This document shows, one piece after another, positions 4,626-31,357 of a DNA stretch of 64,000 nucleotides. The stretch is taken from positions 1,924,429 to 1,988,428 of the forward strand of contig CAVZZX010000003.1 of assembly GCA_963779865.1 (NCBI GenBank), in the 5' to 3' direction. Both the position numbers and the translations under genes were made by a program. Below the pieces are notes generated by a model. The model was not told the DNA's origin and did no database searches. It saw only the letters and a list, made by a program, of their open reading frames with translations. The stretch is from an uncultured Gammaproteobacteria bacterium (GTDB lineage: Bacteria; Pseudomonadota; Gammaproteobacteria; CAVZZX01). How positions within the stretch are numbered: the first letter of the stretch is position 1; each line of letters begins with the position of its first letter.

Positions 4626-4900
4626 ACGCCTCGCGCCGCGACAACCTGCAGGTGGACGCCGACAGCGACGGCAAAACCCTGCGCGAGTGCGTCGCCTTGG
4701 CGCTCCGCGAATACCTCAAGCACCTCGACGGCCACCCGCCCGGCAATCTCTACCAGATGGTCCTCCAGGAAATGGAGGCGCCGCTGCTGGAGGCGGCCCT
4801 GCAGCACACCGGCGGCAACCAGAGCCATGCAGCCGAGATCCTCGGCATCAGCCGCGGCACCCTGCGCAAGAAACTCAAGCTCTACGGGCTGGACAAGTGA
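4622..4900 (+). CDS. fis: DNA-binding protein Fis
   Basis: C-terminal HTH GNQSHAAEILGISRGTLRKKLK; 92 aa; ATGA overlap with dusB. Confidence 0.85.
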   Translation: MNASRRDNLQVDADSDGKTLRECVALALREYLKHLDGHPPGNLYQMVLQEMEAPLLEAALQHTGGNQSHAAEILGISRGTLRKKLKLYGLDK

Positions 4901-6602: not shown

Positions 6603-7895
6603 ATGAAGGTACTGATCATCGGCGGCGGCGGACGCGAGCACGCCCTCGCCTGGAAGGCAGCGCAGTCCCCCGGCATTGAAACGGTCTACGTCGCCCCCGG
6701 CAACGCCGGTACCGCACGCGAGCCGAAGCTCGAGAATGTGGCGATCGCCGCGGAGGACATCGACGCCCTGCTCGCCTTCGCCCGCGGGGCGCAGGTCGGG
6801 CTCACCATCGTCGGGCCCGAGGCCCCGCTGGTGGCCGGCGTGGTCGACCGCTTCACCGCGGCCGGGCTGCGCTGCTTCGGCCCGAGCGCCGCGGCCGCAC
6901 GGCTGGAGGGCTCCAAGGCCTTCAGCAAGGACTTCCTCGCCAGGCATGGCATTCCGACGGCCGGCTACCGGGTGTTCACGGAAATCGAGCCCGCGGCCGC
7001 CTACGTGCGCGAGCGCGGCGCGCCGCTGGTGGTCAAGGCCGACGGCCTGGCCGCCGGCAAGGGCGTGGTGGTCGCGCCAAGCGTCGACGAGGCGCTGGCC
7101 GCGGTGCAGGAGATGCTGGCGGGCAACCGCTTCGGCGAGGCCGGCCACCGGGTGGTGGTCGAGGACTTTCTCAGCGGCGAGGAGGCCAGCTTCATCGTCA
7201 TGGTCGACGGCGAGCACGTCCTGCCGATGGCCAGCTCACAGGACCACAAGGCGCGCGACGACGGCGATCGCGGGCCCAACACCGGCGGCATGGGCGCCTA
7301 TTCCCCCGCGCCGGTGGTCACCCCCGATGTGGAGCGCCGCATCCTCGAGGAGGTGATCCTGCCGACCGTGCGCGGCATGGCCGCCGAAGGCCACCCCTAC
7401 ACCGGCTTTCTGTATGCCGGGGTGATGGTCGACGCGGACGGCCGTCCGCGCGTACTCGAATACAACTGCCGCTTCGGCGACCCCGAAACCCAGCCCATCA
7501 TGATGCGCCTGCGCTCGGACCTGGTCGCCCTGTGCGAGGCGGCGCTGGACGGCCGGCTCGATACCGTGCGCGCCGAGTGGGACCCGCGCGCCGCGCTCGG
7601 CGTGGTGCTGGCCGCCGGCGGCTACCCGGACACCTACCGCAAGGGCGAGCGCATCCAGGGCCTTCCCGAGAAGGATGCCCCCGACGCCAAGGTCTTCCAC
7701 GCCGGCACGGCCGCGGCGGACGGCGGCGTAGTCACCAGCGGCGGCCGCGTCCTGTGCGCCGTGGGGCTGGGGGAAAGCGTCGGCACCGCGCAGCGCCGCG
7801 CCTACGCCCTGGCCGATGCCATCCATTGGGACGGCGTCTACTACCGCCGCGACATCGGCCACCGCGCCATCGCCCGCGAGGCAGGCGCCGGCTGA
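6603..7895 (+). CDS. purD: Phosphoribosylamine--glycine ligase
   Basis: MKVLIIGGGGREHALAWK, ATP-grasp; 430 aa; directly after purH. Confidence 0.9.
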   Translation: MKVLIIGGGGREHALAWKAAQSPGIETVYVAPGNAGTAREPKLENVAIAAEDIDALLAFARGAQVGLTIVGPEAPLVAGVVDRFTAAGLRCFGPSAAAARLEGSKAFSKDFLARHGIPTAGYRVFTEIEPAAAYVRERGAPLVVKADGLAAGKGVVVAPSVDEALAAVQEMLAGNRFGEAGHRVVVEDFLSGEEASFIVMVDGEHVLPMASSQDHKARDDGDRGPNTGGMGAYSPAPVVTPDVERRILEEVILPTVRGMAAEGHPYTGFLYAGVMVDADGRPRVLEYNCRFGDPETQPIMMRLRSDLVALCEAALDGRLDTVRAEWDPRAALGVVLAAGGYPDTYRKGERIQGLPEKDAPDAKVFHAGTAAADGGVVTSGGRVLCAVGLGESVGTAQRRAYALADAIHWDGVYYRRDIGHRAIAREAGAG

Positions 7896-25612: not shown

Positions 25613-26170
25613 CTACCAGCGCAGATGAACGCCGACCGTGGTGGCCACGTCGATGTTCACCTCCGGGCCGTTCTTGAGGTCCGCCGAGATATCGTGGCGT
25701 TCGACGTACACGTTCGCCTGCGGCATCAACTGGTAGCTCACGCGCGCGGCGAGTTCGGTCAGCCCGTCCGCATCGCCGAAGGAAACGATGCGCGGTGCGT
25801 AATAGGCATGTCCCCCGACACCCAGACCGTGCCAGTTCTGGGGCGCATACATGAAGCGGCCGCCCAGGGCCAGTCCGCCGAGTTCGTTCGGTCCGGTGTC
25901 CACGTAGTAGAAGCGGCCGCCGATGCCCAACTCGAGCGGACTCTGCCAGGAATCGTTGTATACGAGCATCCCTGCATCCAGAAGCACGTCATCGTCCGTG
26001 TCGTACAACAGCCCGCCTTCGACCTCCACTCGCCCGTACTGCTGCCCCCACATCGGGGTGGCGTAGCGCACGCGCGCGGTCTCGTCGTTGAGCGAAAGCT
26101 CCAGCGACTGGGCATGGGCGGCGCCGGCGGCCAACAGGGCCAGTCCGGCGAATAACGGATGAAAACGCAT
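25613..26170 (-). CDS. Outer-membrane beta-barrel protein (YfaZ-like)
   Basis: Signal peptide LLAAGAAHA, alternating beta-strand pattern, C-terminal aromatic residue. Confidence 0.5.
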   Translation of the reverse strand: MRFHPLFAGLALLAAGAAHAQSLELSLNDETARVRYATPMWGQQYGRVEVEGGLLYDTDDDVLLDAGMLVYNDSWQSPLELGIGGRFYYVDTGPNELGGLALGGRFMYAPQNWHGLGVGGHAYYAPRIVSFGDADGLTELAARVSYQLMPQANVYVERHDISADLKNGPEVNIDVATTVGVHLRW

Positions 26171-26260
26171 GTGAGGCTCCCGTATTGCTGCAGTGACGGC
26201 ACCGGCTGCGGCGCCCGGCGTATCATATCGACTCCGCGCCGCCTTGGCACCTCGCCGCGT

Positions 26261-27220
26261 TCACCGTTTGAGGATGCGTTGCAGAGTATCGCGGTAGCGA
26301 TCGAGGTGGGCGTCGCCGGCGGCCAGGGCACGGCGGGCGTAGACTTCGGCCGCCGTCCAACGGCCGCGGTCGGCCAGCACGCTGGCCAGATTGTTCAACG
26401 CCGGGGCATAGTCCGGCGCACGCTCGATCAGGCGTCGATAGGCCTGTTCGGCACGCTCCAGATCGCCGGCGCGGTAATAGGCGTTGCCCAGCCCCATGGC
26501 GGCGATGCGGCTCTCCGGCCAGCGCGCCAGGGCCCCCGCATAGGCGGGGATCGCGGCGGTGGCGTCCCCACCCTCTTCCAGGGCCGCCACAGCAGCCAGA
26601 TACGGGCTCGGCGACGCGCTCACCGGCAGCGTGCCCGGCGACAGGGCAAGCAGGGCCCAATGCCCCCCGCGCGCCCAGGTGCGCTCGAACAGCGCCAGCG
26701 TCTCGCGGTGTCGACGCTCGGTGCCCGAACGCAGCACCAGCACACCGTCCTGCAGGTCGTAGCCAACCACCACCGCATAGTGCCAGCGCGGCAGCCAGCT
26801 CAACCCCAGGTTCTGCAGCACCAGCACCGGATGTCCCGCGGCGACTTCCGCGAGCAGGTCTTTGAGGTGCGGCGGCAGCACGTAGGCGACGCGGCCCTGG
26901 GCACGCGCCGCCGCCACCAGCTCGAGCTGCAGGCTCCCCTTGCGGGCGGGCACGTAGACCGCCGGCGTGAGCTGCTCGGGCTGCACGTGCAGCCCGCTCC
27001 AGTCGAGCACCGTGGCCAGGGCGGCCGGGCCGCACTGATGCAAGGTCTGCGGGAAGAAGGGCACGTCGGTGAGCTCCGCGCGCGGCGCCAGGCCCGGAGG
27101 CGGCGCGCTCCGCAGGTGCGCGCTCTGCGGCGCGCTGGCGCAGCCGCCCAGGAGCAACAGCAAGAGTATCCACAGCAGACCGCCCGGACGCAGCCGGGCG
27201 GTCGGGGGCGAGGCGAACAC
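26261..27220 (-). CDS. PA2778-family cysteine peptidase-like lipoprotein with TPR region
   Basis: Lipobox LLGGC, C39-like peptidase pattern (QCGPAALATVL...HYAVVVGY), C-terminal TPR-like repeats. Confidence 0.55.
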   Translation of the reverse strand: MFASPPTARLRPGGLLWILLLLLLGGCASAPQSAHLRSAPPPGLAPRAELTDVPFFPQTLHQCGPAALATVLDWSGLHVQPEQLTPAVYVPARKGSLQLELVAAARAQGRVAYVLPPHLKDLLAEVAAGHPVLVLQNLGLSWLPRWHYAVVVGYDLQDGVLVLRSGTERRHRETLALFERTWARGGHWALLALSPGTLPVSASPSPYLAAVAALEEGGDATAAIPAYAGALARWPESRIAAMGLGNAYYRAGDLERAEQAYRRLIERAPDYAPALNNLASVLADRGRWTAAEVYARRALAAGDAHLDRYRDTLQRILKR

Positions 27221-27233
27221 CCTTATCGCAGCC

Positions 27234-27638
27234 TCACTGCACGGTCTTCTTCACGAACGGAAACACGTCGGTGTAGCCGAGGATGTCCGTCGCCAACAGC
27301 ACCAGAAACACGAATACCGCTGCCCCGAGCAGATCACCGCCGGCGGGCATGTCCTGCATGCGCTGCGCCAGCGACTGCGCCTCCCGGTCGCTGAGCCGGG
27401 CGATACGCGCCTGGGCCTGTTGCGGGTCCACGCCCCATTGGACGAGCTGCTTCTGCACGGCATCGCGGGCGAGAAAGGCGTTGAGCTGGGCACGGCTTTG
27501 CTGCGCCGCCGGCGCCTGGGCCAGCAGCTCACTGGTGCCCACGACCGACGCGGCGGCGGGCGAGGCCATGGAGGCGAGCACCAGGGCCGCCGCGGACAGA
27601 TGCACCCAGAGGCGGGCACGACGTCGACACAATTCCAT
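27234..27638 (-). CDS. PA2779-family protein (signal peptide + C-terminal TM anchor)
   Basis: About 134 aa, N-terminal signal, helical middle, C-terminal hydrophobic segment; 13 nt upstream of PA2778-like gene. Confidence 0.5.
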   Translation of the reverse strand: MELCRRRARLWVHLSAAALVLASMASPAAASVVGTSELLAQAPAAQQSRAQLNAFLARDAVQKQLVQWGVDPQQAQARIARLSDREAQSLAQRMQDMPAGGDLLGAAVFVFLVLLATDILGYTDVFPFVKKTVQ

Positions 27639-27724
27639 AAGGGCCTCCCTAGTCGGTTGCTTGCTGTGGATTTGAGAAGAGCCAGGGTCGAAAACGGAAG
27701 TGTGCACCACGGGCGCAGCGCGCG

Positions 27725-28669
27725 CTAGGTGTGTAAACCCACCAGGTTGTTCACGATAAGCCGTGAGATCGGAGGCCGATAGCCGAGGCTGGCGTGCGGT
27801 CGGTGCCAGTTGTACTGATGCAGCCAGGGCAGGAGGTGCTCGGAGCGCTGGTCGGAGGAGACGTAGGCGCGGGCATAGGCCCATTCGCGTAGCGCGGTCT
27901 GGATGAAGCGCTCGGCCTTGCCATTGGTGCGCGGGGTGTAGGGCTGCGTGCGCAGATGGCGCAGCCCCAGACGACGGCACAGGCGCGCAAAGCGCCGGGA
28001 CAGATAGCAGGCGCCGTTGTCGGTCAACACCCGCTGGAAGCGGATGCCCAGTCCCCGGTAGTAGCGCAGCACCTGCAGCAGAAAGGCGCAGGCGCTGCGG
28101 CCGGTCTCATCGGGGTGGATGGCGCCGAAGGCGACTCGGGAGTGGTCATCGATGGCCACGTGGACATACTCCCAGCCGGCCCCGCGGGAGCACTGGCGTC
28201 GGTCCTCGGTGGCGCGGTGCCCCGGGACGCGAAAGCGCCCGAGTTTCTTGATGTCCAGGTGCAGCAGCCCGCCGGGCTGGGCGTATTCGTAGCGCCGTAC
28301 CGGCGGGGCGGGCTCGAGCTGGGCCAGGCGATTGAGCCCCATGCGGCGCAGCCAGCGCCCCACCGTGCTGTGACCGATCCCCAGCCGCTGGCTGATCTGG
28401 CGGTAGGTCTGACGGGCCCGGCGGCATTCGACCAGCTGGGCCCGGCGCTGCGAGCAGAGTGCGTGCGGGCTGTGATGGGGACGCGAGGGGCGATTCGCCA
28501 GGCCCGTCGGCCCCTCCTCGCGGTAGCGCTGGAGCCACTTGTAGGCGGTGCGCACGCTCACGCCGGCCGCCTGGGCCGCCTCGCGGGGGCGCAGGCCCTG
28601 CTCGAGGATGCGACGCACCAACAGCTCTCGACCATGGACGGTTAATCGGGCATTTTTATGGTTGTTCAT
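27725..28669 (-). CDS. IS481 family transposase
   Basis: N-terminal HTH, rve integrase core domain (DDE); stop codon formed at flanking CTAG. Confidence 0.85.
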   Translation of the reverse strand: MNNHKNARLTVHGRELLVRRILEQGLRPREAAQAAGVSVRTAYKWLQRYREEGPTGLANRPSRPHHSPHALCSQRRAQLVECRRARQTYRQISQRLGIGHSTVGRWLRRMGLNRLAQLEPAPPVRRYEYAQPGGLLHLDIKKLGRFRVPGHRATEDRRQCSRGAGWEYVHVAIDDHSRVAFGAIHPDETGRSACAFLLQVLRYYRGLGIRFQRVLTDNGACYLSRRFARLCRRLGLRHLRTQPYTPRTNGKAERFIQTALREWAYARAYVSSDQRSEHLLPWLHQYNWHRPHASLGYRPPISRLIVNNLVGLHT

Positions 28670-28753
28670 TCGGGGCTCCCGGAGGTTGGATTTGGTTTGC
28701 ACCTCCAGTCTTCCGGGTAAGCCCCGAGTGAACAACCTACTGAGAGATCACAG
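27729..28753 (-). mobile_element. IS481-family insertion sequence
   Basis: Single DDE transposase ORF; imperfect about 30-bp terminal inverted repeats sharing AGGTTGTTCAC; flanked by CTAG on both sides (27725-27728 and 28754-28757). Confidence 0.8.
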
Positions 28754-29716
28754 CTAGGCATTGTGCTCGTCGGGCGGAGGGCAGGCCGGGGCGCCCGCCA
28801 TCCGCCCCATCTCGCCGAGCATGCGTTCGAGCTGCGCCCGCGAGTCGGGAAAGCGGCCCGCCTGGTGCAGCTCATGGCGGCGGTTGTGGGCGACCTGATC
28901 GATGCGGTCACGTACGTCGGGGTTCTCCTGGATGAAGGCGAGAAACGGTGCACAATCGATACGCAGGACCTCCAGGTCGCTGCTTGCGGTCACCGTGGCG
29001 GCGCGCGGCGCGCCCGTGAGCAGCGACCACTCGCCGAAGTAGTCGCCGGGCCCGAGCAGGGCGAGGTTGAGTGCAGGCCCGCCGGCCCGGTGCGAGACGC
29101 GCGCCGCGCCGTAGACGATGACGAACAGCGCATCGCCGGGCTCGCCCTCCACGACGATCGGCGTGCCGGCGCCGAAACACAGCAGCGCGGCCTGCTCCAG
29201 CAGTTGGTCGCGCGCCTCTTCGGGCAGATAACGCAGCAGCGGCACCGCACGCAGGCCGGTATGCAGGACCCGGCTTCGATAGCGTTCGAGCACCCCCTCG
29301 CGCACGCGCGGGTTGCGGGCAATCAGCGTGGCGAGCACAGCGCCGGGGATTTCCAGCAGCAGGGTTTCGCGGCTGGCGGTGGCCGTGGACAGGCGCGCCG
29401 CGCCAAACAATGCCCCGATTTCCCCGCACAGCTCGCCACAGCCCAGGCGCGCCAGACGCACCGGCTCGCCGTCGACCACTTCGGACACGGCCACCTCTCC
29501 GGAGAGCAGGAGGAAGGCACGCTCGTCGCGCTCGTGCTGGCGGCAAAGCACCGCGTCTGCGGCCACCCGGCGCAGCACGCCGTGCTCCACCAACAGCTCG
29601 CGATCGGCGTCGCTCAACAGGGCGCCGAAGGCGGACGGCCGGCTCAGCACCCGCTGTACGAGCTGCAGCAACTGCGCCGCACCGGGAGCCGCACGATCGT
29701 CGAGTTTGTGCGCCAT
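28754..29716 (-). CDS. Protein with two cyclic-nucleotide-binding domains
   Basis: Two CAP_ED-like segments (GEVAVSEVV..., FGEWSLLTGAPRAATV); stop codon lies in the CTAG at the IS boundary. Confidence 0.6.
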   Translation of the reverse strand: MAHKLDDRAAPGAAQLLQLVQRVLSRPSAFGALLSDADRELLVEHGVLRRVAADAVLCRQHERDERAFLLLSGEVAVSEVVDGEPVRLARLGCGELCGEIGALFGAARLSTATASRETLLLEIPGAVLATLIARNPRVREGVLERYRSRVLHTGLRAVPLLRYLPEEARDQLLEQAALLCFGAGTPIVVEGEPGDALFVIVYGAARVSHRAGGPALNLALLGPGDYFGEWSLLTGAPRAATVTASSDLEVLRIDCAPFLAFIQENPDVRDRIDQVAHNRRHELHQAGRFPDSRAQLERMLGEMGRMAGAPACPPPDEHNA

Positions 29717-29893
29717 GTTCCCACACCTGCACGTATTGATCGTCTATGGTCCACGGCCCTTCGGCCGCAGGACAGGAAACCGGTCACAAATCGCAGCGGG
29801 CGCCGCCCCACCCGCCGGAAACCAGAGCGTGGCGCTTTATGGCGCACCCCAGGCCGGGTACTATCGTGCGCGTCGCCGTGAAGAGCGCCCGGG

Positions 29894-31357
29894 ATGTTCA
29901 TTCCGCTCCACCGCAAGCTGGACCTGCGCAACCCGCCACTGGCCACCGTCGCCCTGATTTTGGCCAACCTTGCGGTATTCCTGTTCTGGCAGCACAACGA
30001 TGCCGCCCTGGAGCAGGCCGCGGTCGACTACTACCTGCATTCGGATCTGCCGGCGCAGGAGCTGCCGCGCTACCGCGACTACCTCCGGCACCATGCCGAG
30101 CAGGGCCCGGCCGCAGGACAGTCTGCGCTGCTCCTGCAGCGGATGCTCGCCGACGCCCCGTTCATGGCCGCGCTGCGCGACGGTGCGCTAGTCACGCCCC
30201 GGGCCCCCGGCTATGCACAGTGGCAGCGCCAGCGCGCGCAGTTCGAGGCGCTGCTGCAGCAATCCACCGCCTGGCGCTACGGCCTCAAGCCGGCGGCGCT
30301 CTCGCCCGCGGCACTGGGCCTGCACATGTTCCTGCACGCCGATCTGCCCCATCTGCTCGGCAACATGCTGTTCCTGTTCCTGTTCGGATTCGTGCTCGAG
30401 GGGGTGCTCGGCTGGCGCCTGCTGCTCGGCGTCTACCTGCTCGCCGGGCTCGCCTCGGCCGGCGTCGACATCCTGGTGCGGCCCGACAGCCTCGCCCCCG
30501 GGATAGGCGCCTCGGGCGCCATCGCCGGGCTGGCCGGCGTCTATACGGCCCTGTTCGGGCGCCGCCGCATCCACTTCTTCGTGGCGCTGGGGGTGTATTT
30601 CGATTACGTCCGTGCGCCCGCGGTGGTGCTGCTGCCGGTGTGGCTTGCCTACGAGGGACTGCTGCAGGTTCTGGCGCCGGGGGCGAGCAATCGCATGGTC
30701 CACATCGGCGGCCTGCTCGCCGGCGCCGCCATTGGCCTGGGTGCCCGCCACCTGCTCTCCGAGCGCGGCCACGACACGCTGGAGGCCGAGGCGAAACGCG
30801 ACGCCCGCAACCGGCAATATACCGAAGCGCTCGATCTGATCGCCGACATGGAGCTGGACGCGGCGCGCCGCCTGCTCGAAGAGCTCCATGCGCGCGACCC
30901 CGCCGACCGTGACGTGCTGCTCCAGCTCTATCACATTGCCCGCTTTGACCCGAGCTCGGCCGCCTATCACGACTATACGCACCGGCTGCTGGCCCTGCCG
31001 GGCAGCGACCCCTCGACTCTGCGCCTGGCGCACGACATCTACGAGGAATACATCCGCGATGCCCGGCCCGCGTTCCGCTTCACCGGCGGCGACCTGCTCG
31101 GGCTCGCCATCCGCTTCGCCGGCGGCGGCTATGCCGCGAGTGCCGAACGCATCGTCGCCTGGTTCCTGCAGCACCGACGCGAGCATCCGCGCAATGCCGA
31201 AGCCCTGCTCGCGCTCGCTGGCGGCTTTCGCCGCGAGGGTGACGAGGACAAGCACACCCGGGCGCTCGAGCTGCTGATGCGGCTCTACCCGGAAAGCCCG
31301 CAGGCATTGCTGGTGCGTACCGGCACGCGTGAGCCGGCCGGCTCAGGCGCTGCGTGA
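29894..31357 (+). CDS. Rhomboid family intramembrane serine protease with C-terminal TPR-like domain
   Basis: Rhomboid GxSG (GASGAIAG) and downstream His in TM helices; soluble helical C-terminal region. Confidence 0.65.
   Translation: MFIPLHRKLDLRNPPLATVALILANLAVFLFWQHNDAALEQAAVDYYLHSDLPAQELPRYRDYLRHHAEQGPAAGQSALLLQRMLADAPFMAALRDGALVTPRAPGYAQWQRQRAQFEALLQQSTAWRYGLKPAALSPAALGLHMFLHADLPHLLGNMLFLFLFGFVLEGVLGWRLLLGVYLLAGLASAGVDILVRPDSLAPGIGASGAIAGLAGVYTALFGRRRIHFFVALGVYFDYVRAPAVVLLPVWLAYEGLLQVLAPGASNRMVHIGGLLAGAAIGLGARHLLSERGHDTLEAEAKRDARNRQYTEALDLIADMELDAARRLLEELHARDPADRDVLLQLYHIARFDPSSAAYHDYTHRLLALPGSDPSTLRLAHDIYEEYIRDARPAFRFTGGDLLGLAIRFAGGGYAASAERIVAWFLQHRREHPRNAEALLALAGGFRREGDEDKHTRALELLMRLYPESPQALLVRTGTREPAGSGAA

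Follow-up and report, generated by a model that had tools for sequence, protein, structure and literature searches.

The 64,000-nucleotide (nt) window analysed here, on contig CAVZZX010000003.1 of an uncultured gammaproteobacterium, carries an insertion sequence (IS) of the IS481 family between a cyclic-nucleotide-binding (cNMP-binding) gene and a trio of genes for PA2779-, PA2778- and YfaZ-family proteins. We conclude with high confidence that this is a complete, probably active element whose NCTAGN target was the existing stop codon of the cNMP-binding gene, that its insertion caused no coding damage and was most likely near-neutral, and that its left end probably shields the start of its own transposase. 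An earlier note on this DNA had reported an IS flanked by CTAG on both sides, and that observation is confirmed, with CTAG copies at 27725-27728 and 28754-28757. The same note had taken CTAG itself as the target duplication; the flanking copies are present, but the true repeat is the 6-bp GCTAGG (NCTAGN) rather than 4 bp.

Ends, target duplication and transposase

Each CTAG is the centre of a GCTAGG repeat, and both repeats abut the tips of the terminal inverted repeats (IRs) exactly; the element and one repeat together added 1,029 bp (Table 1). The IRs are imperfect, 25 bp long and identical at 18/25 positions, comprising a TGTG tip, three scattered positions and an 11-nt core, AGGTTGTTCAC. 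In the 70% G+C window CTAG occurs 23 times (0.36/kb) and GCTAGG 5 times, and no second copy of the element was found there. We exclude a chance arrangement because these words are so scarce in the window, yet both copies lie exactly against the IR tips. IS481-family elements measure about 1-1.3 kb, with imperfect IRs starting TGT and a 6-bp NCTAGN duplication; here the length is 1,023 bp, both IRs start TGTG and GCTAGG stands on each side. Such a duplication and TGT-initiated IRs were reportedly described for the family prototypes by Stibitz in 1998.

The transposase agrees with this assignment, which the earlier note had already made. An NCBIfam profile search matched NF033577 (transpos_IS481) at 319.2 bits against a cut-off of 224 (E = 2.6e-95), and the protein scored below every cut-off of the IS3, IS630 and IS21 models. 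Pfam placed PF13011 (LZ_Tnp_IS481) at residues 23-103 of a 336-amino-acid (aa) open reading frame (ORF), along with HTH_23/28/29/32, rve and rve_3. A single ORF without a frameshift thus combines an N-terminal helix-turn-helix/leucine zipper with an rve (DDE) catalytic core, and the DDE triad (D139, D217, E253) is invariant across 16 homologs of 53-76% identity. The element is probably active. IS3-family elements are marked by two overlapping ORFs joined by -1 frameshifting and by a 3-4 bp duplication; the single ORF, the 6-bp duplication and a score of 105.8 bits on NF033516 (cut-off 160) exclude that family. An alternative TTG start at 28735, which gives the 336-aa ORF, was also rejected: the Pfam match starts at ATG 28669, GGGAG stands 6 nt upstream of it, and the cluster members have 314 aa.

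The element has no stop codon of its own, and the transposase frame runs past its right end. In the final codon, ACC, the A is the last base of the IS and the two Cs come from the target (A|N-C, boundary 27728-27730), and the TAG of the target follows. The earlier note had claimed that the stop codons of both the transposase and the cNMP-binding gene fall in the flanking copies, and this proved accurate, one repeat supplying each TAG. Relatives were drawn from a scan of one genome per species, which gave 80 loci that do not include the source genome; the best of them, from Pokkaliibacter, has 76% transposase identity. The 66 intact copies among them span many phyla, and in 60 the ORF ends in the flanking CTAG; the two 6-bp NCTAGN repeats are identical in 39 of the 55 copies with both ends located. 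Related copies are 1,023-1,048 bp long, with the ATG 80-90 nt from the TGTG tip. In a multi-copy element of a Bryobacterales metagenome-assembled genome, the bases next to CTAG vary by site, both sides changing together, so they belong to the duplication and not to the IS.

Further copies in the same genome support the right boundary. The transposase's 90% cluster holds four variants from the 3,415,820-bp source contig, read as proteins only; three differ only in the last residue (S, I or T), and the fourth ends in S and has two internal substitutions. S, I and T are what A-N-C predicts for target bases G, T and C, and three different last residues place copies at no fewer than three separate NCTAGN sites in the source genome. 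These copies, as protein variants, are mutually 99-100% identical. At the level of protein sequence, the target-encoded last residue confirms the right boundary to the base. Because the last residue is site-dependent, protein variants (P0121, P0241, P0243 and P0244) can be used to count insertion sites without DNA.

The fifth cluster member, from run SRR11534415 (locus L090), is 94.4% identical in nt sequence and aligns over positions 1-1023; it has its own CCTAGC repeat and adjoins an unrelated hydrolase gene. The same run also holds an IS-free orthologous locus, L003 (78% aa identity). If L003 and L090 share one organism, the IS would be older than the lineage split and the insertion at the present locus would be lineage-specific. 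Both junctions recur in short reads assembled from the same strain (ERR11718636); the contigs there break about 24 nt inside each IS end, as expected because the element is repeated. As a multi-copy element it is a likely place of assembly breaks and rearrangements in this lineage.

Table 1. Coordinates and properties of the insertion sequence, its neighbours and the orthologous loci (window positions unless a locus is named)
Feature	Coordinates	Strand	Remarks
Complete insertion sequence, IS481 family, 1,023 bp	27730-28752	minus	bounds from the 6-bp direct repeat, the inverted repeats and end-to-end alignment of the independent copy L090
Left inverted repeat (transposase 5' side), TGTGATCTCTCAGTAGGTTGTTCAC	28728-28752	minus	18/25 match to right repeat
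Right inverted repeat, inward reading TGTGTAAACCCACCAGGTTGTTCAC	27730-27754	plus	also codes transposase C-terminus ...VNNLVGLH
Target-site duplication, GCTAGG (CCTAGC in transposase orientation)	27724-27729		completes the final transposase codon with its last two bases, then gives the TAG stop
Target-site duplication, GCTAGG	28753-28758		holds cNMP-binding gene stop, TAG 28756-28754
Transposase gene, 314 aa plus TAG stop outside the IS	27725-28669	minus	ATG 28669, stop TAG 27727-27725; one uninterrupted ORF
Predicted RNA hairpin	28660-28737	minus	5' arm 28737-28720, 3' arm 28677-28660
cNMP-binding gene, 320 aa	28754-29716	minus	two cNMP_binding domains; ORF intact; codons 29716-28757, stop TAG 28756-28754
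Native spacer upstream of PA2779-family gene, 85 nt	27639-27723	minus	aligns with the IS-free L003 spacer
PA2779-family (DUF6627) gene, 134 aa	27234-27638	minus	NF033919
PA2778-family C39 cysteine peptidase gene with TPR repeats, 319 aa	26261-27220	minus	NF033920
YfaZ-family outer-membrane protein gene, 185 aa	25613-26170	minus	PF07437
L003 (8-kb contig)			cNMP protein identity 78%, then PA2779-family gene; spacer 114 nt; no IS
L007/L008			cNMP protein identity 51%, then full trio; spacer 147 nt; no IS
L092			cNMP protein identity 53%, then full trio; spacer 251 nt; no IS
L004	6001-7602 (L004)		cNMP protein identity 56%, then YfaZ directly, without PA2779/PA2778; spacer 120 nt; no IS

Pairing between the left end and the transposase start

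In the transposase transcript the left end is predicted to fold into a hairpin over the translation start. Its 5' arm is the inner part of the left IR and its 3' arm comprises the Shine-Dalgarno spacer, the ATG and transposase codons 2-3; the arms are 18 nt long and 94% complementary. The 131-nt region has a minimum free energy of -54.9 kcal/mol (z = -6.7), and none of 200 shuffled sequences folded as well. RNAalifold recovered the pairing unguided from 38 distinct related left ends. Over the 17-pair stem in these 38 relatives, 81.6% of cells were paired, compared with 73.1% in shuffled alignments and 25-52% (maximum 51.7%) with slid partners, and double changes were found in 68 cells versus 26 in the shuffles. 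Compensatory changes occur in 9/17 stem pairs, one position being U-A in 18 relatives, C-G in 17 and G-C in 1. The covarying columns fall outside the coding region and outside the shared IR core, which, like the TGTG tip, is also present in 46 distinct related left ends. A search of Rfam gave no match over 27000-30000, and a limited literature search found no description of IR/start-codon pairing in the IS481 family.

We regard translational shielding as the most economical reading of this pairing, and probably the right one. Transcripts that come from outside carry both arms, so the initiation region would be hidden from ribosomes; those entering from the cNMP-binding gene would fold into the stable hairpin and leave the transposase untranslated. 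A transcript begun within the element, downstream of the 5' arm, would remain open to translation. The transposases of IS10 and IS50 are likewise said to be protected from outside transcription, a point attributed to Mahillon and Chandler in 1998. In IS200, a stem-loop sequesters the Shine-Dalgarno sequence of the transposase mRNA (PMC4513863). The likeness among these systems is that structure in the 5' part of the mRNA hides the transposase start codon or its Shine-Dalgarno sequence. They belong to unrelated families, however, and in the present element the 5' arm forms part of the terminal inverted repeat, with covariation as the source from which we infer its function.

The insertion site and its IS-free counterparts

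The earlier note had placed the IS between the cNMP-binding gene and the PA2779/PA2778/YfaZ genes, and this placement stands: all five genes lie on the minus strand, with identities assigned by Pfam and NCBIfam. It had also proposed comparison with IS-free loci. In that comparison, L003, L007/L008 and L092 keep the gene order without an IS, the genes lying 114-251 nt apart. With the IS and one repeat taken out, 86 nt separate the cNMP stop from the PA2779-family ATG in the window. Neither outcome that the note had named as evidence against it was seen: no relative combined equal spacing with absence of the IS, and the assignment of IRs and duplication was not contradicted. The closest counterpart, L003 (rhomboid on the opposite strand, cNMP-binding, PA2779-family, PA2778-family), has 79% nt identity to the window on both IS flanks, and the gap between the aligned blocks is 169 nt there versus 1,170 nt here.

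In the sequence reconstructed for the site before insertion, ...AAT GCC TAG CGCGCG..., the cNMP ORF already terminates at the same TAG; the exact empty site, as reconstructed, reads ...CACAATGCCTAGCGCGCGCTGC... The cNMP-binding gene retains its stop in the second GCTAGG copy, so no coding sequence was damaged. Its reading frame is unchanged by the insertion, and the trio genes are full length, of the same lengths as their orthologs and free of decay. The cNMP proteins of L003 and the window both have 320 aa and differ in their C-terminal tails.

We propose that the DDE transposase chose as its target an NCTAGN site in which the TAG was the existing stop codon of the cNMP-binding gene, and that a 6-bp staggered cut and insertion would then have duplicated GCTAGG. 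The upstream gene would have kept its original stop in one repeat copy, and the transposase would have acquired its stop from the other. Transposition is indicated indirectly by the target-distinguishable copies of the source genome and by the orthologous loci that lack the IS. The insertion is most likely recent and near-neutral, with the native 85-nt upstream region of the trio left untouched, and we take near-neutrality as the default reading.

Neighbouring genes and spacer

The genes around the insertion keep a conserved order (window 25613-31357; L003, L007, L008 and L092; 51-78% identity): a TPR protein, a divergent rhomboid protease, and the cNMP-binding, PA2779-family, PA2778 C39 peptidase, YfaZ, outer-membrane beta-barrel protein and CBS-domain genes. 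This set looks like an uncharacterised envelope module tied to a cyclic-nucleotide sensor. Given L004, the conserved partnership may be that of the cNMP-binding gene and YfaZ. The cNMP protein has no recognisable DNA-binding domain. In L007 a CRP-like palindrome, TGTGGTCTGTGTCACA (TGTGN-N6-TCACA), lies at 6993-7018, just 3' of the cNMP-binding gene.

The native spacer carries a 20-nt motif, GCCCGTGGTGCACACTTCCG, at 27714-27695 on the minus strand, 10 nt downstream of the repeat. The motif, in the form GCCCGTGGTGCACA(C/G)TTCCG, is common to window positions 27695-27714 and IS-free L003 (6890-6909), in a spacer that is otherwise poorly conserved. It includes the palindrome GTGCAC and may serve as a regulator site or belong to a non-consensus promoter. 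A sigma-54 or extracytoplasmic-function-type reading of the motif was dropped by eye, the spacing being unsuited. A second CTAG lies at 27649-27652, 11 nt upstream of the PA2779-family start and within the ribosome-binding region (GACTAGGGAGG). This further potential IS481-type target, if used, would part the PA2779-family gene from its upstream region.

The spacers of the IS-free relatives all exceed 100 nt and hold no recognisable terminator. A sigma-70-like TTAACA-N17-TATCAT stands about 45 nt upstream of the PA2779-family ATG in L007 (7048-7076) and L092 (approximately 4675-4703). This promoter and the length of the IS-free spacers make it plausible, and suggest, that the trio has a promoter of its own.

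Weighing the alternatives

The earlier note had raised the possibility that the insertion functionally re-wired the PA2779/PA2778/YfaZ genes, and this could come about either by driving them from an IS-borne promoter, through read-through of the transposase transcript or through a hybrid promoter, or by cutting them off from transcription or regulation through the cNMP-binding gene. We consider this unlikely, although several observations lend it some substance. The genes are co-oriented and no intrinsic terminator was found between the transposase and the PA2779-family gene, so that transcription from the transposase promoter could weakly read through into the trio. At 101 copies of IS481 in Bordetella pertussis, transposase transcripts continue beyond the element into downstream DNA, and at 46 of these they enter co-oriented genes (PMC6161684). 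The cNMP-binding gene stands beside the trio, or YfaZ alone, in every relative examined, suggesting a functional link, and the right end of the IS bears an outward-facing TTTACA, a -35-like hexamer. Manual inspection, however, found no -10-like hexamer 16-18 nt beyond it, and a consensus scan of both strands over 27400-29000 returned no promoter, neither a sigma-70-like one on either strand of the IS nor an antisense promoter of the IS481 Pout type. A terminator scan of the same interval yielded no more than a pair of weak terminator-like hairpins, of which one is antisense and the other lies within the ORF. Moreover, the upstream region of the trio with its conserved motif is intact, the spacers and sigma-70-like sequences of the relatives point to a separate trio promoter, and the downstream genes show no decay. 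Should a single transcript ever have covered the cNMP-binding gene and the trio, the 942-nt transposase ORF, left untranslated, would probably be polar in a Rho-dependent manner. A broader proposal would make the pairing a clade-wide IS481-type translational insulator and the IS, at this locus, a Rho-dependent polar block that uncouples the trio from cyclic-nucleotide-linked transcription, with low read-through from the IS promoter as replacement input; we hold this to be rather improbable.

It is very unlikely that the element has lost its mobility and survives as a relic, or has been domesticated as an integrase-like gene, and is fixed at the locus. It is present once in the window, and no identical copy emerged from the collections searched: nothing in the plasmid collection exceeded 72% nt identity over 78% of the element, and a metagenome scan with the 5' 40-mer of the IS gave 0 matches. 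Against this stand an intact ORF with an invariant DDE triad, two identical target-repeat copies, at least three target-distinguishable, nearly identical copies in the same genome, orthologous loci without the element, and the 94% copy at another locus in another sample. That the flanking CTAGs and stop overlaps are coincidental and the true ends lie elsewhere deserves almost no credence. CTAG is merely 4 bp, but it is rare in the window and abuts the IR tips on both sides, and the equivalent arrangement in the relatives, the target-encoded last residue that varies as predicted and the L090 copy all argue against coincidence. The reading that we prefer, a complete IS481-family element inserted near-neutrally at an existing stop codon, has points against it as well. 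The IS-free orthologs have at most 79% nt identity and the very insertion point is not alignable in them; a metagenome scan for the reconstructed empty site (a 25-mer across the junction) gave 0 matches; and the two 6-bp repeats differ in 16 of 55 relatives, mostly at an outer position, which makes the outer bases of the duplication less certain than the CTAG. A transposase promoter and start site were not found by the consensus scan, and the distinction between external and internal transcripts is one that we infer.

Relation to known elements and implications

ISRe46/TnRErm46 of Rhodococcus equi also generates NCTAGN repeats; their TAG terminates both the transposase ORF and target genes, and the latter are left intact (PMC6794481). 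The parallel is close: the transposase ends at the TAG of the right repeat, and the target gene, parB there and the cNMP-binding gene here, at that of the left repeat. ISRe46 differs in mobilising a 6.9-kb transposon with cargo genes and in its IR sequence, TGTTGCGGGTCATGACGTTG, whereas the present element consists of the 1,023-bp IS alone and resides in a gammaproteobacterium-like genome of 70% G+C. Because this trait has already been described for ISRe46/TnRErm46, the hit on a stop codon is unsurprising; the coincidence of stop codons is a known consequence of CTAG targeting and not peculiar to this locus. About 9 of 21 native CTAGs in the window are apparent gene ends by a rough measure (100 or more codons without a stop and third-position G+C of at least 0.8). 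Among the related copies, the flanking CTAG closes a stop-free run of 100 codons or more in 24/49, chance being about 48% for either strand in G+C-rich DNA.

IS481 and IS1002 of B. pertussis resemble the present element in being about 1 kb long with one DDE transposase ORF that has LZ_Tnp_IS481 and rve domains, a likeness drawn from family features and not from direct sequence comparison. Unnamed IS481-family copies in Pokkaliibacter plantistimulans, Dechloromonas, Pseudomonas paraeruginosa, Frateuria and Xanthomonas (L010-L021; 65-76% transposase identity) share with it the TGTGAT...AGGTTGTTCA ends, a stop in the flanking CTAG and the left-end/start-codon hairpin. They are 1,025-1,031 bp long with the ATG 83-86 nt from the left tip, and relative to the window element they fall below the customary same-IS limits of 95% protein and 90% DNA identity. 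Outside its own lineage the nearest sequences have 76% aa identity in the genome collection, 78-79% aa among metagenome proteins and 72% nt in plasmids. Since the relatives retrieved lie below those limits, the element would get its own name.

The locus leaves the understanding of IS481 elements and of the neighbouring genes unchanged, and its value is mainly one of annotation: the transposase gene must be permitted to end outside the element, the duplication is 6 bp and the upstream gene is undisrupted. It is a clean example of how CTAG-targeting elements land harmlessly on stop codons in G+C-rich genomes, and the covarying hairpin offers a testable mechanism by which this clade may avoid activation by host transcription.

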